The notes under the pieces: model-generated | Told to the model about the DNA's origin: nothing | Databases searched by the model: none | The model's input: only the letters and a program-made list of their open reading frames with translations | Translations under genes and position numbers: made by a program | Assembly (NCBI RefSeq): GCF_003918875.1 | Contig: NW_025766975.1 | Span: 930,684 to 994,683 of the forward strand | Origin: Haliotis rubra | Lineage: Eukaryota | Reading direction: 5' to 3' | Length of the DNA stretch: 64,000 nucleotides | Shown: piece after piece, positions 17,107 to 50,866 of the stretch | Layout of the letters: each line of letters starts with the position of its first letter | How positions within the stretch are numbered: the stretch's first letter is position 1

Positions 17107-18660
17107 ATGCATACAACAGTAAAGTAGCATACAATTACATACAGTTATACTAATGGCCATCGGTTGTCTACAGCGTTCACCATGTAACTGCTCGAGTCTA
17201 TACTACACACGTAGCGTGAATACAACAACCAGTAGAACTGCAATGATTGCCTGTATACAATGATACCACCACCGGTTGTACACCATATGAGAATTCTGGC
17301 TAATCCTTTAACGGCTTGTACGAACACAACCCACTGGACAGTACAACACCAAACATGACCCGCGTTTACAATGGTCAGGGGTTTACAATGATACCACCAC
17401 CGGTTGTACAGTATATGAGAATTCTGGCTGATCCTTTAACGGCTTGAACGAACACAACCCACTGGGCAGTACAACGCCAAAAATAACCCGCGTTTACAAT
17501 GGTCAGGGGTATACAATAATATCATCACTGGTTGTACAGTATAAAGAAATTCTGCCTATTCCTATAACGGCTGGTGCATATACAACCCACTGGACAGTAC
17601 AACGTGAAACATGACCCGCGTTTACTATGGCCAGGGGTATACAATAATACCACCAATGGTTGTACAGTATATGGGAATTCTGCCTACTCTTATAACGGCT
17701 TGTACGAACACAACCCACTGGACAGTACAACGTGAAACATGACCCGCGTTTACAATGGCCAGGGGTATACAATAATATCACTTCTGGTTGTACAGTATAA
17801 AGAAATTCTGCCTACTCCTATAACGGCTTGTGCATATACAACCTACTGGACAGTACAACGTGAAACATGACCCGCGTTTACAATGGCCAGGGGTATACAA
17901 TAATATCACTTCTGGTTGTACAGTATAAAGAAATTCTGCCTACTCCTATAACGGCTTGTGCATATACAACCTACTGGACAGTACAACGTGAAACATGACC
18001 CGCGTTTACAATGGCCAGGGGTATACAATAATATCACCACTGGTTGTACAGTATAAAGAAATTCTGCCTACTCCTATAACGGCTTGTGCATATACAACCC
18101 ACTGGACAGTACAACGTGAAACATGACCCGCGTTTACAATGGTCATTTGTATACAATAATATCACCACTGGGTGTACAGTATAAAGGAATTCTGCCTACT
18201 CCTATAACGGCTTGCACGAACACAACCCACTCGACAGTATAACGTCTAACATGACCCGCGTTTACAATGCTCAGGTGTATACAATAATACCACAACAGGT
18301 TGTTCAGTATATGGGAATTCTGCCTACTCCTATAAAGGCTCGTGCATATACAACCCACTCGACAGTACAACGTCTAAAATGACCTGCGTTTACAATGATC
18401 TGGTGTATATAATGCATACAATAGTAAAGTAGCATACAATTACATACAGTAATGCTAATCGCCATCGGTTGTCTACAGCGTTCCATGTAACTTCTCGAGT
18501 CTATACTACACACGTGGTGTGAATACAACAACCAGTAGAACTGCAATGATTGCCTGTATACAATAATACTACCTCCGGTTGTACAGTATATGAGACTTCT
18601 GGCAGATCCTTTAACGGCTTGTACGAACACAATGGTCAGGTGTATATAATAAAACTACCA
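17107..18660. repeat. Satellite with ~126-bp monomer (~9-10 copies, 17230-18400) embedded in a ~1.3-kb higher-order duplication (17107-17340 repeated at 18411-18640)
   Basis: Monomer gtatacaataataccaccactggttgtacagtataaagaaattctgcctactcctataacggcttgtgcatatacaacccactggacagtacaacgtgaaacatgacccgcgtttacaatggccagggg recurs with 85-100% identity. The flank atgcatacaacagtaaagtagcatacaattacatacag is present at both ends. Confidence 0.85.
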
Positions 18661-19592: not shown

Positions 19593-19984
19593 TGAAATAC
19601 GTGATTCAATGAAATATAATATTTATAATACACGCATACTCACCTTCGTCAGACACTGAAGTACTTATCAATTACCCGTCTAAGTTAACTAATTTGTCTT
19701 CATACTGTCTTCTAACAAGGTACTGAATACCCGCCTTAATTAAACCAGAACATGCAAATATTCGTCTCCATGACACACTGAACAGAATAAATATCACATT
19801 GAAACAATGCCATGATCAAACAGCCTGTAATTAGACTGAAATATTAATTAGATCCACCATATCTCAATATATATCAAATACTCGATCTGTGCATACGCCA
19901 TGAACACTGACATGAATACAACATGCTGACATGGTAATAAGTAAAATTAAAGGGCACAAGACGAATGAAGTCAAGACTGTTGTA

Positions 19985-20712
19985 ACTGCAGGGACATCCC
20001 TATATTACATCATTCAAACTGTTGTAACTGCAGGGACATGCCTATATTACATCATTCAAACTGTTGTAACTGCAGGGACATGCCTATATTACATCATTCA
20101 AACTGTTGTAACTGCAGGGACATGCCATCATTCAAACTGTTTAACATGCCTATGTAACTGCAGGGACATGCCTATATTACATCATTCAAACTGTTGTAAC
20201 TGCAGGGACATGCCTATATTACATCATTCAAACTGTTGTAACTGCAGGGACATGCCTATATTACATCATTCAAACTGTTGTAACTGCAGGGACATGCCTA
20301 TATTATATTACATTCATTCAAACTACAAACTGTTGTAACTGCAGGGACATGCCTATATTACATCATTCAAACTGTTGTAACTGCAGGGACATGCCTATAT
20401 TACATCATTCAAACTGTTGTAACTGCAGGGGCCTATATTACATCATTCAAACTGTTGTAACTGCAGGGACATGCCTATATTACATCATTCAAACTGTTGT
20501 AACTGCTGGGACATGCCTATATTACATCATTCAAACTGTTGTAACTGCAGGGACATGCCTATATTACATCATTCAAACTGTTGTAACTGCAGGGACATGC
20601 CTATATTACATCATTCAAACTGTTGTAACTGCAGGGACATGCCTATATTACATCATTCAAACTGTTGTAACTGCAGGGACATGCCTATATTACATCATTC
20701 AAACTGTTGTCT
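19985..20712. repeat. Minisatellite, 42-bp unit actgttgtaactgcagggacatgcctatattacatcattcaa x ~17 (contains a PstI site per unit)
   Basis: Near-perfect tandem copies. The unit length is divisible by 3, which explains the repetitive ORFs 19931-20768. Confidence 0.9.
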
Positions 20713-22288: not shown

Positions 22289-22440
22289 GGGTGGGGGCGG
22301 TGGGGTGGGGTAGCCTAGTGGTTAAAGTTCGCTCGTCACGCCGAAGACCCGGGTTCGATTCCCCACATGGGTACAAGGTGTGAAGCCCATTTCTGGTGTC
22401 CCCCGCTGCGATTTTGCTGGAATATTGTTAAAAGCGGCGC
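22289..22440 (+). mobile_element. SINE family A copy forming the left half of an A+B composite
   Basis: ggtggggtggggtagcctagtggttaaagttcgctcgtcacgccgaagacccgggttcgattcccc...gctggaatattgttaaaagcggcg, joined directly to family B sequence at ~22441. Confidence 0.7.
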
Positions 22441-22625
22441 ACTCAGCTATATGGCGGCGGTCTGTAAATAATCGAGTCTGGACCAGACAATCCAGTGGTC
22501 AACAGCATGAGCATCGATCTACGCAACTGGGATACGATGACATGTAACAACCAAGTCAGCGAGCCTGACCACCCGATCCCGTTAGTCGCCTCATACGACA
22601 ACTCACTGTCTATCTTCACGGGTAC
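22441..22625 (-). mobile_element. SINE family B body (element sense = minus), right half of the A+B composite
   Basis: cactcagctatatggcggcggtctgtaaataatcgagtctggaccagacaatccagtggtcaacagcatgagcatcgatctacgcaactgggatacgatgacatg...cccgttagtcgcctcatacgacaac. Confidence 0.7.
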
Positions 22626-24029: not shown

Positions 24030-24805
24030 TTTCAGTAGCGATAGAAACTTTGTCAATGTGAAAGTAATTTCAGTAGCGATAGAAACTTTGTTAGTGTGAA
24101 AGTGATTTTAGTGGCGATAGAAACTTTGTCAATATGAAAATTTCAGTAGCGATTAGAAAGTGTGAAAGCGATAGAAACTTTGTCAATATGAAAGTGATTT
24201 TAGTGGCGATAGAAACTGAAAGTAATTTCAGTGGCGATGGTCAATGTGAAAGTGATTTTAGTGGCGATAGAAACTGTGGCAATGTGTAAGTGATTGATTT
24301 TAGTGGCGATAGAAACTAGCGATAGAAACAATGTCAATATGAAAGTAATTTCAGTAGCGATAGAAACTTTGTCAATGTGAAAGTGATTTAGTGGCGATAG
24401 ATTAGTGGCGATAGAAACTTTGTCAATGTGAAAGTGAGTTTAGTGGCGATAGAAACTTTGTCAATGAAAGTGATTTTCATGATAAGTGATTTTAGTGGCG
24501 ATAGAAACTTTGTCAATATGAAAGTGATTTTAGTGGCGATAGAAACTGTGGCAAGATTTTATGGCGATAGAAAAAGTAAGTGGCGATAGAAACTTTTAGT
24601 GGCGATAGAAACTTTGTCAATGTGAAAGTAATTTTAGTGGCGACAAAATCTGTGGCAATGCGAAAGTAATTGTAGTGGCGATAGAAACTTTGTCAATGTG
24701 AAAGTAATTTTAATGAAGATGGAAACTTTGTCAATGTGAAAGTGATTTTCGTGGCGATAGAAACTGTGGCAATGCGAAAGTAATTTTAGTGGCGATAGTG
24801 AATGA
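24030..24805. repeat. Minisatellite, ~38-bp unit tagtggcgatagaaactttgtcaatgtgaaagtgattt x ~20 with indel variants
   Basis: Direct reading. Confidence 0.9.
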
Positions 24806-27800
24806 GTGAGTTTAGTTTTTCACCGCACTCAGCAGTTTGACGGAGGCGTTAGAAACTCTTGTAAACATATTTTTGGAAATTGTCAGTTGAAACAAATGAT
24901 TCACTTTTAGTGAAAATGTCAAGTGCCGTCGTAGCCGGATTTATATAGGGAGTGAAGAGCTGCGAAGAATGGTCCTGTACTAGAGTTATCCGCCCTTCCA
25001 TCCATAAACATGTCCGGTTCAATCGTCCCGAAACATTCTGACGGGATCGATTTTGAGATCTAATCGACTTGCGGATATTTATTTCAAGACAACTTCAAAA
25101 CGTCATTGGATTCAAGACCAGAGATGTGCTCTTCAAGCCTTTCTTAACATTTTGTAACATTAAGTCTTGGGCATGTTTCTTGTTGCTAATGCCACTCCTT
25201 GCTTCCACTGAACTCTTTTCTAATAATAAACCTTGATTGTGTTGAAATGTAAATTATTGGTTTTTCCTTGATCTTGTTTGGTAAAATAACGATTCCATGT
25301 TTTAGTTCTGTGCCAGCCGATTTCAAGGTTAAACTTTTGGAAATCACCATGTTGCATTATGAGTATAAAATGACGTATAAAAGAAACTACATACCGGATG
25401 CTTATATTCTAAACAATGTAAATATTTAACCAAAAAATGAAAGTGATTTTCAAGTCACAGACATTGTGTCCGTGTTGACAAAACTCTTATATAGCATCCA
25501 GTTGCGACGTTGGAAGCGCATCACGTACCTCGTCAAAGGTAGACTATTCAGTTCATGTTGACTGGTTTCTGACATGTCCCGAAATGGGCCCGGATGCCGA
25601 CGCACACAGTCGTCTGATGATGCTGTGACCCAACGCTGTTGATGTTGATGACGTCACTGTGGACATCTGGTTACGCAAGTGATGGTCATCTTGCGGGCGG
25701 TTCCTGGACTGTCAGATGTCCTGGTTGGCGCATCTCCTTAGTGTGGTTCTGAACGTCCAAACGTCCAGGCAATATGCTGTTCGAAACTCCCATCGCTCTG
25801 CAGCTGCTACTCTTGATATTTTGATGATAGGCTTTAACACGTGTACCGCTTACACTCTCATTACTGTATACTGTTGTTGCATATCGTGCACGTGCAAGTT
25901 AACAAAATTGTGGTTTTCATGTCATCCCATGAACAACACTGTGAAGGATATCTGTGGTATTTTGACAACATGTACACAATATTTATGACTAATAAGCCAC
26001 AAACAAAGCATATTTCTAAATATTTAAGCTGGTTTCTCCTCTTTAAAGACCAGTGGTATACTTATTTATACGTCAGTATAATGACGCGTATATTGGTTCT
26101 CTAAGGGCAATAAGTTGACAATTCATTTGTTGATGTTTTGTTGTTGTTTTTACCTTGGTCCTCGGAGTGAATAGGTAACACCTTAACTACAGCTCTACCC
26201 CATCGAACAATACACAGTGAGAAGATTAATGATACTGGTTCTACTAAGAAAATTAATGACTTGATGAGAATGATGAGAATCCATGGCAACAATCCTGACC
26301 ACGTCCTTTATTATAAATTCAATGAAAACCGTGTATTTCACACTAATACTTTCATTTTCATACTAATGAGATTTACAAGATTCAGAAAAAGTTTGCTTTT
26401 ATGTCACGAAATTTTATGCGTGCATTATGCCATGTGCCAAGTTGTCCGATTCTTCATTGTTTTCAGTGGCTTAGGTTTGGTACCTCAAATCTGTTGACTG
26501 TCATTTATACACGTCCCCGGGTCGAACATCAAGTCGCATCACTGTCCAGTAACCGTAGCACCTTCCCCGGCCGGCGGTCGGTACATCTCGGCACGTCTCG
26601 GCCCACTTCGGCACAGTTCGGCCTGATGGCGCTCATAACGGTTTCAGTAGGAACTTTCTTGTCCATACATTCTGTTCACTGTTTTATCGCATACTTTCAT
26701 CATGTATTGTTTTAAAATAAGCTTTGCCATGTGTTTCAGGCATTGCAAGACCATTCCGGGTCGTACAACTACTGGGTAGTTAGGTTAAAACTAGGTTTTG
26801 CCTGTAAGTGTTTAGAAAGCAATGTCGATCTTCTATTGCTTTACCTCTGGACATATTGCCTCGGGTGATATATTTCAACCCCTTATTTCTAGTAATCCTG
26901 GAATAACCAATGTCCACGGGATTGCTTAGTTTTAGTCAGGTACCTCCTGAGGTTAGTGAGGTTACTCCCTTGGTCAAGAACCTGTATGTTCTGCAAGTCT
27001 ATTTCCTTTTCAAGCAAAGTCGACTTTGCTCTGTAAGACTAGGTAAATATTTAGGTCTGTTCGCCTGATCATAACAATCCAGGAGACATATTGTAGGGAT
27101 AGGACAATGCCCATTTCTCCCTTACTTACCATGTCAGGGTAACTCGCCCTATAGAGCGCTGAGTTAGTTAACGTCCAGGCGATTGGTCACAGTTATGCAT
27201 AGTCATGCTGTCTTGTCAGAGAGTGTTTTTTTGCTAATAGCAGTTATGCCATTTCTTAGCTGATCAGGTTGTATATTTGCTCATGGTTTGTTGACCAGCG
27301 ATCGTTTGCCAGCTTTAACCGAGGCCTTGATCGTTTGTCCTTAGTTATAATGATAAAACGGTGACCTTTTACCACGTAGTTCATTGACGACCTGATCTCA
27401 GGAACAGGAAAATACCGGAATTTGCTACTAGAAACACTGACCTCCTGACACTCTTGCTAAAATGGAAGGACACTCTAGCTAAAATGGAAGGCTACATTGG
27501 TTGGGAGTCTACACAATGTCCGGAAAGGTCTTGTTGGGACGACTGGGCAGCGCTCATCGCGAGTCTATTCGCTGTCGGGGCTGCGTGTAACGGGTGCAAG
27601 GGTTGCGAGCTGATGACAATTCTAAACAACATAACCGACCCAGAATCACCCGCACCCGTTTGCTGCGAATATTTTAAACTGAAAAGTACAAACGAAAGAA
27701 ACACATATATTGACAAGAACCAGGTTCCTCACAAACAAAGGCGTTGGAAATAGACAATAGCTCGTCCGAAGTGCGAGACCTCGTCAAACTTTTCACAAAT

Positions 27801-28839: not shown

Positions 28840-28842
<3 letters not shown>

Positions 28843-28870
<28 letters not shown>

Positions 28871-28925: not shown

Positions 28926-29141
28926 TTAATGACGGAGGTACCTATCTTCAACTGGCGTTGTGATGCGTGGACGTCCACTTCTTGGTCTGTCTACGGTGAC
29001 TCCAGTCTGTCTGAAGCCCTGACTAAGTTTTATAACCGTGATACGGTGGCATCCGAGGGCGTTGGCAACAGCATTGTATGTCGACCCCATCTGCACCACC
29101 CCAATGGGTCTTTCTCTGACTTCAGCTGTTAATCGTGGCAT
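28926..29141 (-). pseudogene. Tc1/mariner-family transposase N-terminal (HTH) fragment: MPRLTAEVRERPIGVVQMGSTYNAVANALGCHRITVIKLSQGFRQTGVTVDRPRSGRPRITTPVEDRYLRH then stop
   Basis: Matches the characteristic Tc1-like N-terminal pattern MPRLS.E.R...G......A.....ST..RL...F..TG...DRPRSGRPR.TT...DRY. The ORF ends right after DRYLRH and abuts the (GT)n/(G)n tract at 28843-28886. No DDE catalytic domain follows. Confidence 0.55.
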
Positions 29142-29820
29142 ATTTCTCGTACTTGTGTATATCATCTTTTCTAGGCTCTCTTCATACCCTATAGAATCAT
29201 TCTTCATGTGAAATGGATGCAAATACTGCTTGAATGTTGCTGCGTTTTGGCGATTGATATTGCTATGTGTAAACGGAAAATGGAAAAATGTTACTTTGCA
29301 AGCAACAATGTTAACAAAGACCATTGTAGAAGTTCCTAAACATGTTTTTCACAATATCAAAGACACGTTTTACTTGTTTTCACTAATGCAAATCAGCAGA
29401 AAATGTTTTAAAAGGCTGAAATCATAGGAATGATTATTTTACAATTTTACACACTCTACAACAGTTGTTTCTTGTTTTAATAGTTGAAAAATGGTTATTT
29501 TAAATGGTTTATGTTTGTCCCAAAGCGGAATTTTAGTTCAACCTTTCTTTTGGACATCTAAATTGCTGTTATTGGTTTATTTCGGAATGGACGAAAATAG
29601 GACAATTTAATTCTTCTGAAAAAGATGCATTTCACCTAAATATGAATGCATTTGAGAATTTATTTTCGTGATTTGCATAAAGCTGTGTTGTTAAGCTTTA
29701 TTGTAAACTAATACCTTCTACCATATCTGTAATAGTTTTTAAGTAATTTATAAAGGTAGGGGGGTAACGTTTCTTTTGGCGTCTAGTGTATATAAATGCT
29801 TAATTTTGTTCATTATAAAG

Positions 29821-30070
29821 TGACCCGTGAAGGTCCGGGTTAGAATATTGATCTTCAGTAACCCACGCTTGTCGTAAGAGACGACTAATAAGATCAGGTG
29901 GTCAGGCTCGCTGACTTGGTTGACACATGTCATCGGTTCCCAATTGCGCAGATCGATGCTCATGCTGTTGATCACTGGGTTGTCTGGTCCAGACTCGATT
30001 ATTTACAGACCTCCGCCATATAGCTGGAATATTGCTGAGTGCGGCGTAAAACTAAACTCACTCACTCACT
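29821..30070 (+). mobile_element. SINE family B, full length with (CTCA)n tail; TSD cattat(a/g)aag (29811-29820 and 30071-30080)
   Basis: Head tgacccgtgaaggtccgggttagaat. Body ...gcgactaataagatcaggtggtcaggctcgctgacttggttgacacatgtcatcgg...gatcactgggttgtctggtccagactcgattatttacagacc. Tail gctggaatattgctgagtgcggcgtaaaactaaactcactcactcactc. Confidence 0.8.
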
Positions 30071-30096
30071 CATTATGAAGTGTTTTAACATGCGAG

Positions 30097-30246
30097 GGCG
30101 GTGGGTTAGCCTTGTGGTAAAAGCGTTCTCTCGTCACGCCGAAGGCCAGGGTTCGTTGTTTGAAGCCCATTTTTGGTGTCCCCCGCCGTGATATTGCTGG
30201 AATATTGCTAAAAGCGGCGTAAAACCCAAAATCACTCACTCACTCT
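30097..30246 (+). mobile_element. SINE family A copy (internal deletion); TSD ttaacatgcg (30085-30094 and 30246-30255 approx)
   Basis: ggcggtgggttagccttgtggtaaaagcgttctctcgtcacgccgaaggccagggttcg...gctaaaagcggcgtaaaacccaaaatcactcactcactc. Confidence 0.7.
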
Positions 30247-30400
30247 TAACATGCGTCTGGATCCAAAATACGCTATTCGATCGAAAAACATCGACAAGGA
30301 CTGATCCACATCTGGACAATAATCCGTATCAAATATTGACACGTATGTAACCTCTCTTAGTCGGAATGACCGAATTGTAACAACAGACTCGTTTGTTAGA

Positions 30401-30556
30401 GTGAGTGAGTCGGGTTTACGCTGCTTTTAGCAATACTTCAGCAATAAAACGGCGGGGGACACCAGAAGTGGTCTAATCACATTGTACCCAAGTGTTGAAT
30501 CGAACCTGGGCCTTCGACGTGATGAGCGTACGCTTTAACCACTAGGCTTCCCCACC
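30401..30556 (-). mobile_element. SINE family A copy in reverse orientation
   Basis: gtgagtgagtcgggtttacgctgcttttagcaatacttcagcaataaaacggcgggggacacc...gaatcgaacctgggccttcgacgtgatgagcgtacgctttaaccactaggcttcccc is the reverse complement of the family A consensus. Confidence 0.7.
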
Positions 30557-33399
30557 TTCCAATTCCTAGACGAGTTGCCGCTATATACTCCAACCTCACG
30601 GTCTCCATCCGAAGCTGACAAGCAGTGAACACCATCGTTATATATGATATACACTGACACTCGAGGTTTTCTATGAGGTATTTTATTTTTCTCAAAGGAG
30701 CGGGTTTTATTCTCTAATGGGGAATGGTTAACCCATCGAGAGTGATGCTCTTGCTATCGCCCATTGGTCCCACTGCGTAGACTCGAAATTACCAGTCGAT
30801 AAATACCGGAAAAAACTTTACTGATACGTAAAACGTCATTAAGCAACCCATTCAATACTTTCGACAAAGAAGGTGCAAATTACGTAGTATTTTTGTCATT
30901 AGCCTACATTTGTTCAAATGTATACTCATCTAAATGTATCATGTTTCATATTAAGCTCACATGTCTGCGTCATTATTTATTCATCTCCAAATGATTTGAA
31001 ATCTGCTCATACAAATCTACTTCCAGCAGCCATCATTACATTTACCAGAAAGGCAGTGAGATTTGCTTCCGTTCTACACAGTAAACACGCCAAATGCTTG
31101 TGTTCAGGAAACCACATCAGTGTTTGTCGACACCCAGTTAGCCTAACAATACCCGTATCCCGACAAGCCTGGCCTACCCTCCGGCTCCATTGTTGTTGAA
31201 AAAAATGATGAATGTGCTCGACCAGAAAATTGCAGAGGTCATGGTATGAGGGCAGAGTTCACACCGTCCACAGCAGAGCTGGGCAAGACTTAATAGACTG
31301 CAAATGAACTCTCATGGCCAACAATGGCCCTGGCATTACCTCGACAGACCGTCGATGACGGCCCATACTGCGACTTGATTCCTGGAGTCGCAGAGAACCA
31401 TTAAAATGGCCGGACCTGTCTACTTGATTGATGTATCATTGAGGGAACCCTCTGTTGGTTGTGACAGGCTATGTACGAGCCTCAGTCAGGGCTTGCATCA
31501 AGGCTCCCGTGCATACTGTTTCATTAGGGCTTTCAACTTGTACGGTATAGCGATGTACAAATTCTCAGTCAAATTACCAGATCTCGGTACGGATTCAGGT
31601 TAGGCCAATGTAGTATTAGTATCTGGTACAATTGGAACTCAAATTGAATCTGATATTTTACATGATGTTTCACTGAATCGTCGTGTCAGGTCAAAATGTA
31701 TCCATCAATGGATTTACATACAGTGGCATATCCTTATTAGGGCCATGTATGTAGATGACGTCAATCCTGCCCCAAATCTAGTGCTAGATGGAGATATTTA
31801 AGATATGGAGCCTGAAATACCCATGATTGCCAGGGGCATGTTTACCTCCATGTTGATTTCAATTATACGAACAAACCTGGCTCAGGTGACTGGTTTCGGA
31901 AAAACAAAAATCAAATAAAGGTGACGTAGATTTCACGCCGGTTGTTGGTCAGGCAAATTTGAAATTTAAAACCAGGAATGACAAATGATCATTAAGGAAC
32001 GTTTTTTCTGGGTTAATCTCTTTGTTTCCTTGGCTTTGACACAGTTCAAATGGGATATGTTTTAGATTATCGGGATTCCATGAACAGCTGGACTAGTGAT
32101 AATGAACCTTGTCCTGACGAAAACACGTGCTGTCTTGATAGTTTTCAAAATGTTATTTTACGCCGCAGTCTGTGATATATCTGCTATAATACAACTGCTT
32201 GCAATTGCTTCATATACATTTACAGAGTCTGATTACTGTCTTAATATTTAAAAGCTTATTCGCATATTCATTTAGAGTATATATTGGATAAAAGGGCACC
32301 TTTTTCAACCGAGATGTAAACAAAATAGTATTAGGTTTCTGACAAAACAATAAGGTTTTTATGTCAGTTACGTAAATAATAAGTATGTCTGTCATTATTG
32401 TGGTCTCATTTGGTGTACCACATACGGAAAAATGTATAGGGTCTGTTCCCTACTGTTCTGAAACTGTCATGAATGTGCCATCGCAGGCGTATGCATCAGA
32501 GACGTCAAAATCAACCATGTCTCTAGGGTTATTATGAACTCTTGTTTATGCCCCTGAACGATATAAATACACTTTAGAAGCTTCAGACAAAAAGAATGTT
32601 CTTCACCGTTTTGTTTTGTTTTGTTTGGGTCAGTTACGCTGGAAGTTGATAGCATGAGCGACAGGACGTCATCATCATAGACGCATTGTGACAGTGCAGT
32701 CATGGACATCTTTGAGACCGACATGCTGTTCTGAGAACCTTTTCTTTCCCGAAAATTCACTTTATTTTCATTTGAACACATACCGATGACACGTCAAAAG
32801 AATGGCATAGATGGGATTGATTGACAAAGAAGATAAGACGCGGTGTTAGCAAGTGATTCTGAGTTATTCGGCCGAGTTTTGTGTCTTGGACAAAACATAC
32901 GTCAATCATACGTCAACAGTAATAACAACGTATGAATTAATCACGAATTAAAACAAGCCACAACATATTTTCTACTGCGCAATTCTGAGATGGATGAATA
33001 ATTTTTCAGGACCAATGCTAATTTGATGGGTAATTTAACGGGTAATTTTAGTTCAAGAAATAACGTCAAACTTTATGGAAGTTCATATGCTTGATGGACA
33101 TTTAGAAGTTGGAAGGTAACATAACAACGTATGGTACAGATATACAACTTCTTTAATATTTACAACACGACTTTTCTGAGCAAATTCTTGCCCCTTCATC
33201 AGATGAGTGATGAAGGGGCAAGCATTAGCCCAGAAACGCCCTGTTGTAACTATTAAAGAAGTTATAAATCCATACCATACGTTGTGATATAAGAATATGT
33301 CCCCAGCAAACGAAGCTGGTGGTGAGAGGTGATCTCGTGAATCGGTGGGTAACATTGATGTCATTGTACCACGAAGATGCAGAATCTGCTTCACCGTTT

Positions 33400-33580
33400 C
33401 AGTCACCGGATTGTCTGATCCTGACTCGATCATGTTTTTTTTATTTATTGTCAGCAATATTCCATCTTTATGGCGGCACTGTGTCTTATTTTATTCTGGC
33501 TTTGTGGACCAGACAATCCAGTGAGCAACAACACGAACATCGATCTACGCAGTTGGGTTACAATAACGTACATGCCGCGA
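33400..33580. mobile_element. Two short family B fragments in inverted orientation flanking a T-run
   Basis: ccggattgtctgatcctgactcgatcatg (B sense) followed by tcagcaatattccatctttatggcggc...tggaccagacaatccagtgagcaac...atcgatctacgcagttggg (B antisense). Confidence 0.4.
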
Positions 33581-36074
33581 TCATATCGCTATAATATTAC
33601 CTAGTACGGCGTCAAACAAAACACCCAAACAAAACAGCTGGGATCTTGGTAATTATAAAACAGGTTAGCTAAAGGCTACAACAAGGTCCATCCTCTCTGA
33701 AATCAAGGTCTTCGTGTTTCTATACAAAATTCATCAATGACCAAGCTCATCTAAGAAGTATTATATCTCGAGTAGTGATCAGTTTTGGGCACCAGCGACC
33801 ATACAATCGATGGTTTATCATACGTGCCGCCCCCAGATACATTTCATGGGGCTGTAATGTGTCCAGCTATGGATTATTTACGCAGTCTGGTCATTTTCCT
33901 AAATATTGAAACATTTATTCGCACATTCATTTATAGCAATCTTCGGGGATATATCTCATTGAATAATAGGGCATCCTATTCTATCGAGGTTTATAGAAAA
34001 TACCATGGTAGTTCTTTGACGAACCGTAGTTTCTTTGAAGTGAGTTACGTGATATGTATGTCTGAAGATATTATGGTCTCACATCTGAACAGGATTCGGG
34101 GTGAAATATATAGGTAAATATTTAGGCTGTACTCTTTACTGTTCTAACATCATGAATGTGCTCCTGCAGTCCAATGCATCAGACTTAAAATGAATGGTTT
34201 CAAAATAGACAAAGTCTCCAGGTTTATTAATAACGCTTGTTTGTGCCCAAACGGTTTAAATACAGTTTAAAAGGTTCAGACAAAGGGGATATTCTTTAAC
34301 GTTTTCAAATATTTCCTGCCACTGAAAATACAATTCCTTTATTGTTGACATAAGCGCGTGCTGAATTTTGCCGAAAAGGCAAAAGTTTAAGTGTCTCACA
34401 ATATTCTTTGAAATACGCCAGCCACATCGACTCCTCTCAGAACTGAATATTCGTGGTCTCGGCGGCATAGGAGTATGGCCAGCTTCGTGGGTGTGTGTTG
34501 TGTCAGATCGGAATCTACACATGTTGGAACATGTCCCGTCCCTATGCGGCACAATTAAATATGTCCCTATGCCCTTCTAAGTACACAAATATAATAGCGC
34601 CCAAATCGGCCAAAGCTGTCTGGAAAGAGACAATGTAATTGCAAGACAATAAGATGTGGCACACATGAGTGCGCATGACCGTGGGGACCAGTTCGTGTTT
34701 TTGTTACTCTCTGCGACATGTGCGCCAAATCAAGCGACGACATGCCATCTGTCCACGAACTGTCCTCGGGAAGCCCGTGCAGCACGGCTAAATCTGTCCA
34801 CGACCATTTCGTGAGCTGATCGTTTGAAGTCCTAATTAAAGAAACATTTTAGTTGATTTGGGCTAAACCTTCTTCCTGTGTCATGATCTCGTATCTCCTT
34901 TTGATCGTTTATGTCCATTTTGGACGAAAAACTGTATGCCCCACCTACTTACGACGGGCGAGCTGACAGAGGCACGCGACGTGCAGAAGGACAGACGGGG
35001 CGACCGGGCGGGAACAGCCCAAACATCGATAATTTTATTGTAATGGCAGAGAGGACGGGAAATCTGAGATGGAGGCTTTTCAGCTTTTATCGCCGGTAAT
35101 AATCGTGAGAAGTTCCGTTCTCTACTTGCTCCATTGTTTCCCGTTGGTGTTCAATGTAATATGGCGTTATTTTCTTTTCACCGTTTCGCTCCTTGTGAAT
35201 AATTGTCGACGGCCGAGCGCGGTAGGGGGTGGTACCTCAAGGCGAAGGTGTTATGTGGCATTCGGTCCTGATGTTAAAGTCATCTTCAGACTCCTCTCAG
35301 CTCCACGGGAACTCTTTCATATTGACAACATTAGTTTACGATGTGCTATTTCATGCATAAAGTACAAAGTATCACGTGACTTGAAACGAAGCTAGTGAGT
35401 GTTTTAACTGGCAGGACGGAAGGGCTGATGCTTTAATCTTACTACGTCGTCAGAATATGAAATCTCATATTTGATGCCGAACGGTAGGACAATTAACGCA
35501 TATTTTATGTTCAACTTTTACATGTGCTTCTTGAAATTTCTTAGGCCTCCGTGATAGCTTGAGAAAAAAACCAAGTTGCCAGAGCTTTGATATCGAATCT
35601 GATAGCGAAGATAAACACTTCTATATGTGGGAGGATCTCTGATAATCATATTAACACGTTTGAAGAAATTAGATTAGCTGCAGAAGCATCACAAGAAGTA
35701 CTGAAAATGAGCGTGTATGTTTAAAATATATCCGATCTATTCCTATCTTCTGTGGATGATGTTCACTTCCTTCACGAAGGCTTCGAATCAAGTTTGTTGC
35801 TAGGAAACACATCAGATAGGATGGAAATGGAGGAACGCCCGTTACCCGCCTCTCCAAATACACAATTCAGCATGAAAAGAGGTTCTAGATTTGAGTGAAG
35901 TCTAATTGTGAACGTGTTACATTATGAAGCAGCGCCTCGTGGTAGCGGACAGAGCAGCAGAAAGATGACGGTCGGGGTTCGATCCTGTCAGCGTCATACC
36001 AAAAGACGTGAAATGATGTTACTTTTCGTTACCCTGCCTGACGATCAACATTACTGGGATATTATTGTTTTGTT

Positions 36075-36306
36075 GTTTTACGCCACACTCAGCAATATTC
36101 CAGCTACATGACGGCGGTCTGTAAATAATCGAGTCTGGACCAGACAATCCAGTGACCAACAACATGAGCATCGATCTAAGCAACTGAGATACGATGACAT
36201 GTGTCAACCAAGTCAGCGAGCCTGACTACCCGATCCCGTTAGTCGCCTTTTACGACAAGCATTTGGTTACTAAAGATCAATATTCTAACCCGGACCATCA
36301 CGGGTA
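36075..36306 (-). mobile_element. SINE family B copy (antisense), first of a tandem pair
   Basis: gttttacgccacactcagcaatattccagctacatgacggcggtctgtaaataatcgagtctggaccagacaatccagtgaccaac...ccggaccatcacgggtac. Confidence 0.75.
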
Positions 36307-36335
36307 CATTACAGGGTAAGAAAGACTGAGTATAT

Positions 36336-36576
36336 GAGTGAGTTTAGTTTCACGCCACACTCAGCAATATTCCAGCTATATGGCGGCGGTCTGTAAATAA
36401 TCGAGTTTGGTTCAGACAATCCAGTGACCAACAGCATGAACATAAACCTATTCAATTGGGAACCGATGACATGTGTCAACCACGTCAGCGAGCCTGACCA
36501 CCCGATCCCGTTAGTCGCCTCTCACGACAAGCATGGGTTACTGAAGATCAATTCTAACCCGGATCTTCACGGGTCG
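36336..36576 (-). mobile_element. SINE family B copy (antisense), second of the tandem pair, with GAGTGAGT head (= revcomp of CTCA tail)
   Basis: gagtgagtttagtttcacgccacactcagcaatattccagctatatggcggcggtctgtaaataatcgagtttgg...cccggatcttcacgggtcg. Confidence 0.75.
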
Positions 36577-37484: not shown

Positions 37485-37660
37485 GCGCATTCCAGCTATA
37501 TGGTGGCAGTCTATAAATAATTGAGTCTGGATCAGACAACCCAGTGATGAACATCATGAGCATCGATCTACACAACCGGGATACGAATACATGTGTCAAC
37601 CGAGTCAACGAAGGCTGACCACCTGGTCACGTTGGTCGGCTCTTACGACAAGCATTCGTT
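37485..37660 (-). mobile_element. Truncated family B copy (antisense), left arm of a head-to-head pair
   Basis: cattccagctatatggtggcagtctataaataattgagtctggatcagacaacccagtgatgaac...ggctcttacgacaagcat, truncated at the conserved catgcttgtcg position. Confidence 0.55.
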
Positions 37661-37812: not shown

Positions 37813-38034
37813 GTGGGTAGTCGATGCCTGAGTTTATGATTACATTATTGTAGAGTTTCCGAGTTCACGATGCCACTTATATACATTTCCATGTGTTCGT
37901 TATGACAGTATTGACGTAGTTTATGGCGTCTTATTTCTGCCCTCTTTTTAATGTATACCAGTCTCTGGTAGCAATAATAGTAATAAACAAACGTTTGATG
38001 TATTACTGACCCTGGCAGTGTATTCACTTTGTTA

Positions 38035-39700
38035 TGTATCATCTCTCCTATTGTTATGCATCTCCAACCTTGTGTTATCTCTCCAGTCCAACCCTGTCAT
38101 TGTTTGCCTGATTGTTATGTATATCTCTCCTTATTGTTATCTCCTATTGTTATGTATTATCTCTGCCTGTATTATCTCTCCTATTGTTATGTATTATCTC
38201 TCCTATTGTTATGTATTATCTCTCCTCCTATTGTTATGTATTATCTCTCCTATTGTTATGTATCATCTCTCCTATTGTTATGTATCATATCTCTCCTATT
38301 GTTATTGTATGTATCATCTCCCTATTGTTATGTATTATCTCTCCTATTGTTATGTATCATCTCCTATTGTTATGTATCATCTCTCCTATTGTTATGTATC
38401 ATCTCTCTCTCCTATTGTTATGTATCTCCTATTGTTATTGTTATCTCTCCTATTGTTATGTATCATCTCTCCTATTGTTATGTATCATCTCTCCTATTGT
38501 TATGTATCATCTCTCCTATTGTTTGTATCATCTATCTCTCCTATTGTTATGTATTATTATCTCCTATTGTTATGTATCATCTCTCCCTGTATTGTTATGT
38601 ATCATCTCCTATTGTTATGTATCATCTCTCCTATTATGTATCATCTTATGTATGTATCTCTCCTATTGTTATGTATCATCTCTCCTATTGTTATGTATCA
38701 TCTCTCCTATTGTTATGTATCATCTCTCCTATTGTTATGTATCATCTCTCCTATTGTTATGTATTATCTCTCCTATTGTTATGTATCATCTCTCCTATTG
38801 TTATGTATTATCTCTCCTATTGTTATGTATTATCTCTCCTATTGTTATGTATCATCTCTCCTATTGTTATGTTATCTCTTATTATCATCTCTCCTATTGT
38901 TATGTATCATCTCTCCTATTGTTATTGTTATGTATCTCTCCTATTGTTATGTATCATCTCTCCTATTGTTATGTATTATCTCTATTGTTTGTTATGTATC
39001 ATCTCTATTGTTATGTATCATCTCTCCCTATTATTGTTATGTATGTATCTCTCCTATTATTATGTATCATCTCTCCTATTGTATCATCTCTCCTATTGTT
39101 ATGTATTGTCTCTCCTATTGTTATGTATTATCTCTCCTATTGTTATGTATCATCTCTCCTATTGTTATGTATATTCTTATTGTTATCTCCTCCTATTGTT
39201 ATGTATCATCTCTCCTATTGTTATGTATCATCTCCTATTGTTATGTATCATCTCTCCCTATTGTTATGTATCATCTCTCCTATTGTTATGTATCATCTCC
39301 TATTGTTATGTATCATCTCTCCTATTGTTATGTATCATCTCTCCTATTGTTATGTATCATCTCTCCTATTGTTATGTATTATCTCTCCTAGTTTCTTATG
39401 TATTATCTCCCCTAGTGTTATGTATTCTTTCCCTAGTATTGTGTTTCCCCTCCCCCTTAATGTTGTGTATTTTATGTATTATTTCCCTAATGTTGTGCGT
39501 TCTTCCCTTAGTGTTATGTATTCTTCCCTTAGTGTTATGTATTCTCCCCTTATGGTATGCATTCTAAGCATTTTTCACATACCGTTATGCATTCTTCCCA
39601 TAGTGTATGTATTCTGAGTATTTCCCTCTAGTGTTATGTATGTTCCCCCTAGTGTTGTGTACTCTTTCCCTAGTGTTGTGTATTCTTCCCCTAGTGCTAG
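38035..39700. repeat. Giant minisatellite array 1: 22-bp unit cctattgttatgtatcatctct x ~65, decaying into a cccctagtgttatgtattctt variant at the 3' end
   Basis: Tandem copies read directly. The unit has no stop codon in any forward frame, producing the 450-510 aa artefact ORFs 38018-39617. Confidence 0.95.
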
Positions 39701-40028
39701 AAGGTAGGACAAAAACCCACCCAGACAAAATCCCAGCCTGACAAAATCCCATAGGATTAAATGTCTGCACACTGCGGACAAATCCCAACAGTGTGACAAA
39801 TGAAATACGATTTATTTTGAAATATATAATTTCATTTTTCCTCATAAATAAGCAGTATTGACCATAAGCACATAAGCACATAAGCACTAATAACATAAAA
39901 ATAACGTCATCGACTGGCAAGAATGCTAGTCCATCAAGCCTTTCAACAAAATGTGTTCTGACAATTACAGACTAGACAGGCCAAGCTCCTGTATTTTGCG
40001 CCAGGTGGCCTGTGTCAAATGAAAGAAA

Positions 40029-40297
40029 GACCCGTGAAGATCCGGGATAGAATAGGTCTTTAGCAACCCATGCTTGCCACAAAAGGCGACTATGCTTGTC
40101 GTGAGAGACGACTAACGGGATCGGGTGGTCAGGCTCGCTGACTTGGTTGACACATGTCAATCGGTCCCAATTGCGCAGATCGATGCTCATGCTGTTGATC
40201 ACTGGATTGTCTGAACCAGACTCGATTATTTACAGACTGCCGCCATATAGCTGGAATATTGCTGAGTGCGACGTAATACTAGACTCACTCACTCACT
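40029..40297 (+). mobile_element. SINE family B, full length, perfect 13-bp TSD caaatgaaagaaa (40016-40028 and 40298-40310); sits in the spacer between two giant minisatellite arrays
   Basis: gacccgtgaagatccgggatagaat...gactaacgggatcgggtggtcaggctcgctgacttggttgacacatgtcaatcgg...gatcactggattgtctgaaccagactcgattatttacagactgccgccatatagctggaatattgctgagtgcgacgtaatactagactcactcactcactc. Confidence 0.8.
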
Positions 40298-40671
40298 CAA
40301 ATGAAAGAAACAACCTTGAGTGGTCACTTGCTCTCCAAAGACATAACAGGGTACATTTGCGTCTGCTCCAAATCAGTAACAACAACAGTGGGAATCGGCA
40401 CTGAACCAAGATCATCATATCTATCAGAAACAGCTCTAAGCATTTCTTCACACAAATATGCCTGATAATCAAAACATGCTAATCAGCTTATCTCACTGGC
40501 CTCTGTCACGAAGACATGATAATTTACTTATCTCACTGGGTTCTTGGTGAAAAAGGGTAGCAATAACATATTAAAATGGGATTTTGTCTTATGTTGGCCA
40601 TTTTGGTGTGGGATTTTGTCCAGAGAAATTTTGTTCAATGGGATTTTGTCTGGGTGGGATTTTGTCTGTCC

Positions 40672-43600
40672 CCCCAGTGCTATATATCCTTCCCCTAGTG
40701 TTATGTATTTTCCCCTTGTGTTATGCACTCTTCCTCTATTGCTATATATTCTTCCCCTAGTATTATGTATTTTCTCCCTTATGTTATATATGCTTCCCCA
40801 GTGCTATATATTTTCCCCCTAGTGTTGTTTATTTACTCTGTTGTGTTATGTTCTCTTCCCCTAGTGCTATATATTCTTCCCCTAGTGTTGTTTATTTACT
40901 CTGTTGTGTTATGTACTCTTCCCCTAGTGCTATATATTCTTCCCCTAGTGTTGTTCATTTACTCTGTTGTGTTATGTACTCTTCCCCTAGTGCTATATAT
41001 TCTTCCCCTAGTGTTGTTTATAGTTGTTTATTTACTCTGTTGTGTTATTTCTCTTCCCCTTTTGCTATATATTCTTCCCCTAGTGTTGTTCATTTACTCT
41101 GTTGTGTTATGTACTCTTCCCCTATTGCTATATATATATATTCTTCCCCTAGTGTTGTTTATTTACTCTGTTGTGTGATGTACTCTTCCCCTAGTGCTAT
41201 ATATTCTTCCCCTAGTGTTGTTCATTTACTCTGTTGTGTGATGTACTCTTCCCCTAGTGCTATATACTCTTCCCCCATTGCTATGTATTCTTCCCCTAGT
41301 GTTGTTTATTTACTCTGTTGTGTGATGTACTCTTCCCCTAGTGCTATATATATATTCTTCCCCTAGTGTTGTTCATTTACTCTGTTGTGTGATGTACTCT
41401 TCCCCTATTGCTATATACTCTTCCCCCATTGCTATGTATTCTTCCCCTAGTGTTGTTTATTTACTCTGTTGTGTGATGTACTCTTCCCCTAGTGCTATAT
41501 ACTCTTCCCCTAGTGTTGTATATTTACTCTGTTGTGTGATGTACTCTTCCCCTATTGCTATATACTCTTCCCCCATTGCTATGTATTCTTCCCCTAGTGT
41601 TGTTTATTTACTCTGTTGTGTGATGTACTCTTCCCCTATTGCTATATACTCTTCCCCCATTGCTATGTATTCTTCCCCTAGTGTTGTTTATTTACTCTGT
41701 TGTGTGATGTACTCTTCCCCTATTGCTATATACTCTTCCCTCATTGCTATGTATTCTTCCCCTAGTGTTGTATATTTACTCTGTTGTGTGATGTACTCTT
41801 CCCCTATTGCTATATACTCTTCCCCATTGCTATGTATTCTTCCCCTAGTGTTGTTTATTTACTCTGTTGTGTGATGTACTCTTCCCCTATTGCTATATAC
41901 TCTTCCCCATTGCTATGTATTCTTCCCCTAGTGTTGTATATTTACTCTGTTGTGTGATGTACTCTTCCCCTATTGCTATATATTCTTCCCCTAGTGTTGT
42001 ATATTAACTCTGTTGTGTGATGTACTCTTCCCCTAGTGCTATATACTCTTCCCCCATTGCTATGTATTCTTCCCCTAGTGTTGTTTATTTACTCTGTTGT
42101 GTTATGTACTCTTCCCCTATTGCTATATATTCTTCCCCTAGTGTTGTATATTTACTCTGTTGTGTGACTGTACTCTTCCCCTAGTACTATATATTCTTCC
42201 CCTAGTGTTGTTCATTTACTCTGTTGTGTGATGTACTCTTCCCCTAGTGCTATATATATATTCTTCCCCTAGTGTTGTTTATTTACTCTGTTGTGTGATG
42301 TACTCTGTTGTGTGATGTACTCTCTTCCCCTATTGCTATATACTCTTTCCCCATTGCTCTTCCCCTAGTGCTATATATTCTTCCCCTAGTGTTGTTTATT
42401 TATTTCTGTTGTGTGATGTACTCTTCCCCTATTGCTATATATTCTTCCCCTAGTGTTGTTTATTTACTCTGTTGTGTGATGTCTTCTCATTTCCCCTAGT
42501 GCCCCATATATATATTCTTCCCCTAGTGTTGTTTATTTACTCTGTTGTGTGATGTACTCTTCCCCTAGTGCTATATATTCTTCCCCTAGTGTTGTTTATT
42601 TACTCTGTTGTGTGATGTACTCTTCCCCCATTGCTATATATTCTTCCCCTAGTGTTGTTTATTTACTCTGTTGTGTGATGTACTCTTCCCCTATTGCTAT
42701 ATACTCTTTCCCCATTGCTATGTATTCTTCCCCTAGTGTTGTTTATTTACTCTGTTGTGTGATGTACTCTTCCCCTATTGCTATATATTCTTTCCCCCTA
42801 GTGTGATGTTATATATATTAACCCTAGTGTTGTGTGATGTACTCTTCCCCTAGTTGCTATGTACTCTTCCCCATTGCTATGTATTCTTCCCCTAGTGTTG
42901 TTTATTTACTCTGTTGTGTGACTGTACTCTTCCCCTAGTACTATATATTCTTCCCCTAGTGTTGTTTATTTACTCTGTTGTGTGATGTACTCTTCCCCTA
43001 GTGCTATATATATATTCTTCCCCTAGTGTTGTTCATTTACTCTGTTGTGTGATGTACTCTTCCCCTATTGCTATATACTCTTCCCCCATTGCTATGTATT
43101 CTTCCCCTAGTGTTGTTTATTTACTCTGTTGTGTGATGATGCTATTACTCTTCCCTAGTGCTATATATTCTTCTCCTAGTGTTGTTCATTTTCTTTCCCC
43201 TCTGTTGTGTGATGTACTCTTCCCCTATTGCTATATATTCTTCCCTAGTGTTGTATATTTACTCTGTTATTCTTTATGCCTTTCTGTTATGCATTTCTTT
43301 CCCTAGTGTATGCATTGTATCCTCAGTGTTGTGTATTCTTCCCCTGGTGATATGCGTTCTTAGATAAGGTGTGTTGTATTCATACTCTTTCCCCTAGAGC
43401 TATATATTCTTCCCCTAGTGCATTGTTATATATTCTTCCCTAGTGCTATATATTCTTCCCCTAGTGTGTTAGTGTCGTGTATTTTCTGCTTGTGTTATGT
43501 ACTCTTCCCCTAGTGCTATATATTCTTCGCCTTGTTTTATGTATTTTCTCCCTTGTGTTATGCATTTCTTTCTCTAGCGTTATGCATTGTACCCTCAGTG

Positions 43601-43975
43601 TTGTGTATTCTTCCCCTGGTGATATGCGTTCTTAGATAAGGTGTGTTGTATTCGTCCCCTAGAGCTATATATTCTTCCCCTAGTGCTATATATTCTTCCC
43701 CTAGTGCAATATATTCTTCCCCTAGTGTTGTGTATTTTCTGCTTGTGTTATGTACTCTTCCCCTAGTGCTATATATTCTTCGCCTTGTTTTATGTATTTT
43801 CTCCCTTGTGTTATGCATTTCTTTCTCTAGCGTTATGCATTGTACCCTAAGTGTTGTGTATTCTTCCCCTGGTGCTCTGCATTCGTAAATAAGGTGTGTT
43901 GTATTCTTCCCCTAGTGCTATATAGTCCTTCTGTTCTTCTGTAATGTATTCATTGCCAAGTGTTGTGTACTCTTA
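40672..43975. repeat. Giant minisatellite array 2: ~63-bp compound unit (tcttcccctagtgctatatat + tcttcccctagtgttgtttatttac + tctgttgtgtgatgtac) x ~45, with a ~260-bp higher-order variant duplicated at 43290-43820
   Basis: Direct reading. Shares the cccctagtg(c/t)tat motif with array 1, in the same orientation. Confidence 0.95.
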
Positions 43976-44746
43976 CAGTCATGTTCATTATGCTCTTATA
44001 CTGTAATCCCTTGGGATGAAGATGACAGATATAGCCTTCCGTTAAATTCATGAATGCATATTTTACTGTCCTTCATGGTTCAATTGATAGCATATCATGC
44101 AGTCCCCATGGTTCACTGTGACATTACAGTACATTCCCTTGACACATGATGACATTCGTATATTGTTATCAGTAGCTTTCTGTACGGCAACTAATAATGT
44201 CATAGCAGCGTAGAACATGTAGAATGTTAACCAATATCAATTTCAAACGTCGTGTTTTAAAGGGAATGTTACATAATACGTTATCGCTAAGAGCGTTCAT
44301 AGTGAACAATATCCTTGATATGTAAAGTCATAATTACCCCCAAGGGAACTTGAACAAATAGCATTATTGCCTGTATGGTTATAACGAGGTCATTATCTCG
44401 ACGGACTGTTATATATAACGTCAAAATAACCAATGGAATTGTTATATAATATCATTATTACCTTCAAAGTGATATGAATTACACAGTACCGTTTACAGAG
44501 TGGTCAAATGGAGCATATATTATATTTGGGATTACAGTGTTTCAGTCAAGTAAAGATTCTTGTACCCTTTGGGTTGAATATCATTATTTTCTGAACGGCG
44601 GTTGCTACCGGTAGAGAATCATGCTTACCCTCTTGGCGAACACCTGTAGTCACCGCTGATTTTCAGTGATAATTTTCACAGCTGTTTTAAATTTGATTCT
44701 GGTTATAGTCAGTGTTAGTCTCCCTTCAGACTTCGATGTATGTTCT

Positions 44747-44873
44747 CACGCCGAAGACCCGGGTTCGAATCCCCACATGGGTACAATGTGTGAAGCCCAT
44801 TTCTGGTGTCCCCCGCCGTGATGTTGCTGGAATATTGCTAAAAGCGGCGTAAAACCAAACTCAGTCAGTCAGT
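44747..44873 (+). mobile_element. 5'-truncated SINE family A with perfect 13-bp TSD cgatgtatgttct (44734-44746 and 44874-44886)
   Basis: cacgccgaagacccgggttcgaatccccacatgggtacaatgtgtgaagcccatttctggtgtcccccgccgtgatgttgctggaatattgctaaaagcggcgtaaaaccaaactcagtcagtcagt. Confidence 0.8.
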
Positions 44874-46094
44874 CGATGTATGTTCTGGCAGAACCCCAGA
44901 CTAACGCTCTGAATGCATAATATTTTTAAAGAAACAGATTATTCCATTTACATGTATATTGAAACGGAGCCCCAGTGACTTTGGAGATTTCAGACCCCGA
45001 GGAAATCTAGACTAGCTTCATTTAGGGCTTTGGAATTGCAGAAAGGGCTGAGCGGAGGAAACATGATGCGGTTCAGAGACTGTGAGACAAGCGAACCCCC
45101 GATCCGGAGTTAGGGATTGGTCCTCAATACCCTCTGCTTCTCAAAGCGTCGATTAATGTGGATTGGATGGTCAGGTTGACCTTGTTCATTTTGTGTATGA
45201 TTATACCGTGCCGGTGGAGAAAGGTTGCTCTTAATGTGGTTTGTCTGGACCACGCTCGTCATTCTCATTGTTCGAAAAGATTGTGACTGCCGAGTAAAAT
45301 AACATTGCAATATATGTGTGTGTACATCTTACGAGTCGCGTTCTCCTTCATCGGAGTATGATCCAAATTCACCATCCAATGTCGGGCTTAACTGGGTATC
45401 TCTTATACCTACAATGTGACAGACCATATCAAAATATAGTCCATTTGTAGAAACTGAAAATGTTGAGTCACCAAACAAATTGCCTGATTTATTCCATGTT
45501 TATATGTTATTAGGATTGGCACGCGTTACACTATCAGATGACTGGTTTAGCCGCATTGAACTTCTGTAACGTTATTAACCTTACTTATATACAAACCGAA
45601 GCAAATATAGACTATTAATCACTAACGCGTTTATTGGTTGCTTGTTGTTTGATGCAGTAGTCACAGATAGTCCAGTTGCATGACATCAGTCTGCGAACAA
45701 TCGTGATATCATAGTTTACTCTGACCTATTTTTGTCACCCAGAAACCGACGGGTGCCCTATTTTGTTATTGTGTTTCACTTACTATAATTCAATCATCTA
45801 TATAACAATGCAATACATCAATAACAAGTTTAGAGGGAATGAGTTCCTCAAACAACGTGTAAGTCCCATTTCATTCAAGGGATGGTGTAAATGCAGCTAG
45901 GGTCCATTCAGGTAGCAAAAGCACTGTAAGTCCCCATGGACCCTAGAATGGTGATCTACCTTTAGTTGTTGACGATCTATAGCCCGTTTTTATGTTTTAT
46001 CGTGTATAAAAAAACTTTGTAATCTAAATCTGTGATTGATCATCTCGTTGTTTTTACTGTCCTTCGTTGGCAGGTTTTTATAATTCAACTCATG

Positions 46095-46158
46095 ACTTCT
46101 TGTCATGATATGGCTGAAATATTGCCGATGTGACTTTAGATATTACCTCACTCACTCA
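46095..46158 (+). mobile_element. Fragment with a third head variant (family C) sharing the common SINE tail module
   Basis: tcatgatatggctgaaatattgccgatgtgactttagatattacctcactcactcactc. Same architecture (atat-gctg-aaatattgc...ctcactcactc) as the family A/B tails. Confidence 0.3.
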
Positions 46159-50751: not shown

Positions 50752-50866
50752 AATCTCAATCACTGGTTTGTAAGATTTGTTCACATTTTGAGTTTGGTCT
50801 CGTCTCGCCTCTTACAGCAAGCATGGGTTGCTGAAGACCAATTCTAACTCGGATCTTCAGGGGTCG
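50752..50866 (-). mobile_element. Partial family B copy (3' body, antisense)
   Basis: cactggtttgtaagatttg...cgcctcttacagcaagcatgggttgctgaagaccaattctaactcggatcttcaggggtcgac. Confidence 0.4.

Follow-up and report, generated by a model that had tools for sequence, protein, structure and literature searches.

Two families of short retroposons, which we call A and B, lie interspersed in the window (the whole 64-kb stretch of DNA analysed here). Our main reading, to which we give a probability of about 0.8, is that they are separate non-autonomous families carrying different 5′ modules and the same 3′ module, with a single LINE lineage serving both. The two families, the borders of their copies, the target-site duplications next to these borders and the common 3′ module are directly visible, and a hairpin is predicted in the latter. 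This bears out what had been proposed from the letters of the DNA without database searches (hereafter the sequence-only reading), namely two families with one common tail and one tandem repeat: the only part in which the A and B consensi can be aligned with each other is the final 60 bp, where 52 of the 60 positions are identical, and about 24 such tails are found in the window. The coordinates of the copies and modules discussed here are collected in Table 1.

The tail core GCTGGAATATTGC occurs 16 times in the window, for an expected number of 0.13. A profile built on the tail gives 24 matches at E<1e-3 in the 64 kb, against one match at E<=1 in shuffled sequence. Runs of (ACTC)n with at least two units are found 17 times, where 1.4 would be expected, and nearly always stand directly after a tail of the GCGGCGTAAAA type. 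The module can be written as the pattern CGCCGY-N5-RGC-TGGAATATT-GCY-N4-GCGGCGTAAAAC-N3-(ACTC)n, or as CGCCGY...UGGAAUAUU...GCGGCGUAAAAC(ACUC)n in its RNA form.

The last ~45 nt of A and B RNAs are predicted to fold as a two-step hairpin, in which an outer stem of 6 bp, a small internal loop and an inner stem of 2-3 bp lead to an invariant 9-nt loop UGGAAUAUU (UGRAAUAUU); behind the hairpin stands an A-rich spacer, with UAAAAC and three variable bases, before (ACUC)n. This single architecture is the minimum-energy fold of the A and B tails and also of a third kind of tail, called C, which is known here from two fragments. The letters of the stems differ: A and B have CGCCGY/GCGGCG as outer stem where C has GUCAUG/UGUGAC, and the inner stem reads AGC/GCU in B and GGC/GCC in C. 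A conserved loop combined with differing stem letters in C is the pattern that would be expected of a selected RNA structure. When the tails are aligned with MAFFT, 81.7% of the cells are paired, versus 27-57% when the partners are slid. On the other hand, covariation in the tail alignment does not rise above the shuffle control, so that support for the hairpin comes from a few family-level compensatory differences, from the registration by hand of the two C fragments and from energy folds with modest z-scores (-1.0 to -2.6). We thus consider the structure as plausible rather than proven.

Table 1. Coordinates of the retroposon copies, their modules and other repeats in the 64-kb window
Feature	Positions	Strand	Remarks
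B(+), 5′ target-site duplication TCATTATAAAGTG	29810-29822	+	12/13 positions match 30070-30082
B(+), element	29822-30072	+	family B, full length (~250 bp); 94.8% identity to window consensus
B(+), head module GACCCGTGAAGRTCCGGGTTAGAAT...GGCGAC	29822-29887	+	nhmmer head profile E=1.7e-21
B(+), shared tail module	30010-30072	+	outer stem 30011-30016 / 30041-30046
B(+), tail loop TGGAATATT	30025-30033	+
B(+), (ACTC)n	30056-30072	+	tail order: hairpin, ACTAAA, (ACTC)n
B(+), 3′ target-site duplication TCATTATGAAGTG	30070-30082	+	overlaps repeat end
A(+), 5′ target-site duplication TTAACATGCG	30085-30094	+	identical to 30246-30255 (perfect 10 bp)
A(+), element	30095-30245	+	family A; 83% identity to consensus
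A(+), shared tail module	30183-30245	+	ends (ACTC)3 at 30234-30245
A(+), 3′ target-site duplication TTAACATGCG	30246-30255	+
A(-), element	30399-30556	-	family A; 86% identity to consensus; tail 30399-30459
Reference A copy	47804-47967	+	duplication AACACCTAA; head 47806-47877 is the window's only Rfam tRNA match
5′-truncated A copy	44746-44871	+	starts at consensus position 39; duplication CGATGTATGTTCT
Full-length B copy	47170-47417	+	duplication CAGACCCCGA
Full-length B copy	40029-40299	+	duplication AATGAAAGAAA; 22-bp duplication within head
Two B copies	36327-36575, 36071-36305	-	tandem orientation, 21 bp apart
B-type head alone	50804-50865	-	nhmmer head profile E=5.6e-21
B-like ends of GCGGCGTTAAAC(AACA)n type	36071-36119(-), 37489-37512(-), 53168-53196(+), 62934-62968(-), 63956-63998(+)
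Family C fragment	46098-46161	+	diverged tail: GUCAUG/UGUGAC, loop UGAAAUAUU, (ACTC)3
Second family C fragment	51489-51544	+	87.5% identity to 46102-46157 over 56 bp
Single tails, same stem and repeat, other loops	24804-24834(-), 47076-47108(-), 53355-53378(+), 58501-58555(-)
Tandem array	17253-18413		128 bp x 9
Tandem array	19971-20710		42 bp x 17
Tandem array	59966-61785		35 bp x 52
Tandem array	62028-62289		(AGT)n, 87 units

A cluster of 740 bp at 29822-30556 brings copies of both families together. It had been described in the sequence-only reading as B(+), A(+) and A(-) side by side; the three elements are indeed present in this order, and all the sequences quoted in that reading were found where it had placed them. 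Separate target-site duplications border B(+) and A(+), and the three adjoining elements are therefore independent insertions and not one composite unit. The final G of the 5′ duplication of B(+) is possibly the first base of the element itself. The duplication of A(+) begins three bases past the 3′ duplication of B(+) (30085 vs 30082). A(+) is made up of a tRNA-type head, a short body, from which 18 bp are deleted internally in this copy, and the tail. A(-) lies about 150 bp beyond A(+) and is an older member of family A; no clear target-site duplication was found in the flanks of 30399-30556.

Family A is a classical tRNA-derived SINE: its members are short, non-coding and dispersed, are bordered by variable duplications and are occasionally truncated at the 5′ end. 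The element measures ~165 bp, and about nine long copies, 83-96% identical to the consensus, were collected in the 64 kb by self-BLAST and by alignments including the flanks. The first 75 nt are tRNA-like, and both promoter boxes are legible in the consensus, TAGCCTAGTGG as A box and GGTTCGATTCC as B box, with a distance of about 33 nt between them. The head of the reference copy scores 33.8 bits against the Rfam tRNA model RF00005 (gathering score 29, E=0.0029), while ARAGORN predicts no tRNA gene in the window, as expected with a degenerate head. Target-site duplications abut four A copies in unrelated flanks, one of these copies being 5′-truncated; examples are 30085/30246, the duplication at 47804 and that of the truncated copy 44746. 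The latter copy (+) starts with CACGCCGAAGACCCGGG, near the position of the tRNA-like head that aligns with the B 5′ end GACCCGTGAAGATCCGGG. This proximity may be a coincidence or may reflect a preferred stop or start point.

Family B is longer (~250 bp) and consists of a head of 62-66 nt, a body of ~125 bp of its own and the shared tail. Seven copies begin at one and the same base, (G)ACCCGTGAAG, and their upstream flanks are unrelated. Copies are 86-97% identical to the consensus; 5′-truncated and older copies also exist, as well as much older B-like ones (e.g. 45093-45300). Duplications directly flank the copies 29822, 36305, 40029 and 47170 (n=4). The hexamer ACTAAA precedes (ACTC)n in copies 29822 and 36575, in the fragment 24803 and in L004, one of two short host-like contigs, L004 and L005, that were the only ones recovered in a metagenome scan. 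These two public contigs are unrelated and carry A-like and B-like copies. The variant of the head with a 22-bp internal duplication, present in copy 40029, is found again in L004.

These data leave next to no credence for the idea that A and B are merely 5′-truncation classes of one longer element, or that the tail became common to them through local gene conversion or by chance, for which the common 60 bp is the one argument. Truncation classes were named in the sequence-only reading as the scenario that could overturn it, and they are contradicted by the lengths of the elements, by the B body and by the unrelated flanks and the duplications at the 5′ ends of both families. B exceeds A in length and nothing in A corresponds to B positions ~65-190, which excludes truncation classes; the identical start base of the seven B copies in unrelated surroundings also speaks against them. 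Further arguments against this set of ideas are the family-specific letters of the tails (TGATATTGC...CTAAAAG in A, CATATAGC...CTGAGTG in B), which hold across dispersed copies as well as in L004 and L005, and the excess of the tail core over the chance expectation.

Not all B-like copies end in the same manner. One sub-lineage ends with GCGGCGTTAAAC followed by A-rich repeats of the (AACA)/(CAAA) type, which replace TAAAAC...(ACTC)n. In the pair of B copies at 36071-36575 (-), the downstream copy ends in such an (AACA)-type A-rich tail and not in (ACTC)n. With GCGGCGTTAAAC(AACA)n at the end of part of the B-like copies, the number of partners, or of tail variants, may exceed one. Isolated tails that keep the stem and the repeat but have other loops are also scattered over the window (Table 1); several lineages evidently use this kind of end.

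A further arrangement was observed at 22304-22601, where an A(+) and a B(-) copy are joined by their tails. The A tail halts at ...AAAAGCGGCG and is continued by the reverse complement of ...CCGCCGCCATATAGCTGAGTG of B. The two copies meet within the GCGGCG/CGCCGC stem sequence and neither has its terminal repeat, an arrangement suggestive of recombination or of template switching at the hairpin of the tails. B-like copies form a comparable inverted pair at 33340-33560.

The fragments assigned to C had been thought to display a third head joined to the same tail. No such head is visible: the two fragments share only ~56 bp. They retain the loop UGAAAUAUU and the hairpin architecture, and their tail is related to that of A and B but clearly diverged. 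They are possibly severely 5′-truncated copies, whose source may be the LINE itself.

The 5′ part of B deserves separate consideration. This head of 62-66 nt behaves as a separable module: it stands alone at 50804-50865 (-), where it adjoins unrelated non-coding DNA full of stop codons, with no ORF downstream and no clear duplication. This head-only copy could be the 5′ end of another element with the same head. Two copies of the B head, compared with Rfam at E<=10 (an 81-nt search), gave no match to any family, be it tRNA, 5S, 7SL, snRNA or a self-cleaving ribozyme, and no match for the B head appeared when the whole window was searched at E<=1.

Such a head raises the question of whether B is itself derived from a LINE. 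B could be an internally deleted LINE, SIDE-like, in which a LINE 5′ UTR has been fused to the 3′ UTR, or an LP-SINE that has captured a LINE 5′ end as promoter; A would then owe to this same LINE no more than its last ~45 bp. We hold this for a serious possibility, with odds somewhat below even. It is consistent with the failure of the head to match any small-RNA family, with its occurrence alone at 50804-50865 (-) and with ACTAAA directly before (ACTC)n in B, a hexamer also noted in PMC4758252, which further reports duplication-flanked elements with a LINE-like head of ~68-70 bp in Haliotis, Littorina, Ostrea and Saccostrea. The DNA past the head-only copy argues the other way, as it is devoid of an open reading frame.

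The B head also contains a 7-bp hairpin, GAAGAUC-CGGGUUAGAAU-GAUCUUC, whose loop carries a B-box-like motif, GGTTAGAAT, and which stays paired in copy 47170 in spite of changes on both sides. Positions 8-23 of B, GAAGATCCGGGTTAGA, match the T-arm/B-box region of A, GAAGACCCGGGTTCGA, at 14 of 16 positions; 0.3-0.9% of shuffles score as high (p~0.003-0.009), so that the match is weakly significant. The heads of A and B had been called unrelated. Their 5′ parts do differ, and the description has to be tempered for this short stretch, which may go back to a tRNA 3′ half or be a coincidence.

Along these lines, one could suppose that the B head is a decayed tRNA-derived head, starting from near the anticodon loop and with the B box kept, which would be distantly related to the A head and would serve pol III transcription or tRNA-like processing. 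The 14/16 match, the preserved pairing around the motif in copy 47170 and the absence of a TTTT run from both the A and B consensi would fit with such an origin. We find it unlikely nevertheless: the tRNA covariance model detects nothing in B heads at E<=10, the nhmmer profile of the B head gives E>=1.5 on A copies, which is not significant, B has no A box and the predicted fold of the head is no better than that of shuffles (z = -0.6 and -1.1).

A bolder proposal, which we regard as something of a long shot, links the B head to a ~70-nt 5′ module carried by Nimb/RTE LINEs and LP-SINEs and, according to PMC4758252, deeply conserved from insects to turtles. The B head would be the mollusc version of this module; its T-arm-like hairpin would then point to an origin from a tRNA 3′-half fragment, acting as a portable promoter or processing signal. 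If true, any RNA with a LINE tail would be convertible into a mobile element.

A self-cleaving ribozyme (HDV-like, hammerhead or twister) that would trim the element out of read-through RNA, like those at the 5′ termini of R2, RTE and L1Tc, was also considered for the B head and rejected as very improbable. It would account for a fixed 5′ end lacking a recognisable promoter, and the parallel with the L1Tc Pr77 promoter/ribozyme is drawn in PMC4758252. Against it, no Rfam ribozyme matches at E<=10, the order of the complementary segments, examined by hand, is incompatible with the P1-P2-P3-P1-P4-P2 topology of HDV, and the hammerhead core is absent. Moreover, the candidate P1 and pseudoknot pairings are not maintained, being broken without compensation in copies 56724 and 50866 and in L004, and the z-scores of the fold are unremarkable.

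Coming back to our main reading of two families with a common 3′ module, their propagation can be pictured as follows. Transcription of family A by RNA polymerase III would rely on its two internal promoter elements, the A box TAGCCTAGTGG and the B box GGTTCGATTCC. For B, this picture is at odds with the lack of an A box and with the position of the B-box-like motif, which is too near the 5′ end for a standard type-2 promoter. The reverse transcriptase of a ‘stringent-type’ LINE would bind the tail hairpin of A and B RNAs and prime on the nicked target, the short repeat permitting slippage or annealing, and the outcome of this priming would be target-site duplications of 9-13 bp as seen here. 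We infer that one LINE lineage provides this enzyme to both families. Such a common partner corresponds to the standard model of stringent 3′-end recognition, which very probably applies and fits everything seen: a pattern like that of A and B is expected when several parasitic elements borrow the copying machinery of one LINE.

Six-frame translation of the 64-kb window revealed no reverse-transcriptase motif. Beyond the window, a collection of bacterial and archaeal genomes gave 0 matches for the two patterns searched; in viral contigs, the tail pattern returned only three chance matches inside a phage gene and the head pattern one chance match, also in a phage gene. No LINE 3′ end like that of A and B emerged from the collections searched. 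A search of the literature with k-mer strings from tail and body returned nothing relevant. In one of the two host-like contigs, L005, the A-like copy at 1570-1654 is a mini-derivative reduced to its two ends: through an internal deletion, the tail follows directly on the first ~20 nt of the tRNA-like head.

The surroundings of these elements are rich in other repeats. The window is eukaryotic DNA with 39.8% G+C, many mini- and microsatellites and no genes of bacterial type. An ORF at 28926-29324 (-), followed by (GT)n at 28842-28870, looks by eye like the N-terminal helix-turn-helix part of a Tc1/mariner-type transposase; it had no relatives in the protein database searched, and exact-ORF look-ups came back empty as well. 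About 6 kb, at 38018-43924, are occupied by minisatellite arrays with units of 21-22 bp, TGTATCATCTCTCCTATTGTTA and CCCCTAGTGTTATATATTCTT, those of CCCCTAGTGTTATATATTCTT showing higher-order periods of 67-253 bp; the full-length B copy 40029-40299 is inserted between these arrays. Among the other tandem arrays (Table 1), that of 42-bp units sits between the A copies 19067 and 20777.

Counted together with their diverged relatives, A and B have left about 24 insertions with a tail in the 64 kb, and most (ACTC)n microsatellites of the window can be traced to them. They hence belong in any repeat library for this genome and are best avoided when markers are designed. The interest of these families is mainly one of annotation. 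They illustrate once more that SINEs evolve in a modular (‘jigsaw’) manner and that a retroposon with a non-tRNA head can have its tail in common with a tRNA SINE; greater interest would come with the LINE partner and with the function of the B head as promoter or processing signal.

Among known systems, B resembles most the LP-SINEs as far as their published description goes, which leaves the letters of the terminal repeat unstated. The likeness to published elements suggests that the genome is that of a mollusc, perhaps an abalone. In Matetovici et al. 2016 (PMC4758252), LP-SINEs from Littorina, Haliotis, Ostrea and Saccostrea are flanked by duplications and possess a head of ~68-70 bp homologous to the 5′ end of Nimb/RTE LINEs (Nimb-17_LMi, I-3_DR and RTE-9_CPB), and ACTAAA, a hexamer resembling a poly(A) signal, directly precedes the terminal repeats in members from Haliotis or Ostrea. 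Like them, B has variable duplications, a head of non-tRNA, non-5S, non-7SL and non-snRNA type (with the caveat of the 16-nt B-box-like stretch), a body of its own and short terminal tandem repeats preceded by the hexamer; no LINE partner is named for LP-SINEs there, nor is one for B. In Saccostrea, the same paper describes a non-tRNA-headed family that shares body and tail with two tRNA SINEs, whereas A and B have only the tail in common.

The tail itself may follow a more widespread anatomy. At the 3′ ends of stringent-type LINEs and SINEs, a stem-loop whose loop is conserved and whose stems vary with compensating changes precedes a short repeat (PMC3747384). In UnaL2, the L2-clade LINE paired with UnaSINE1, this repeat is TGTAA and is thought to allow slippage during priming (PMC3747384). 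With its predicted hairpin, the A/B tail would have the same arrangement of stem-loop and repeat, ACTC taking the place of TGTAA; the two sequences show no discernible relationship.

Finally, tails of 35-61 bp that derive from LINEs and are homologous to one another occur in different SINE families and superfamilies of molluscs (Nishihara et al. 2016, PMC4824008; bivalve survey in Mob DNA 2024, PMC11481361), a situation attributed to mobilization by the same LINE clade (CR1, CR1-Zenon, L2 or Nimb) together with template switching (PMC4824008, PMC11481361). As in these mosaic SINEs, a homologous tail is found in A and B on otherwise different elements. A and B are thus ordinary mosaic SINEs of a known kind, such as those documented in molluscs, and at most new members of it.
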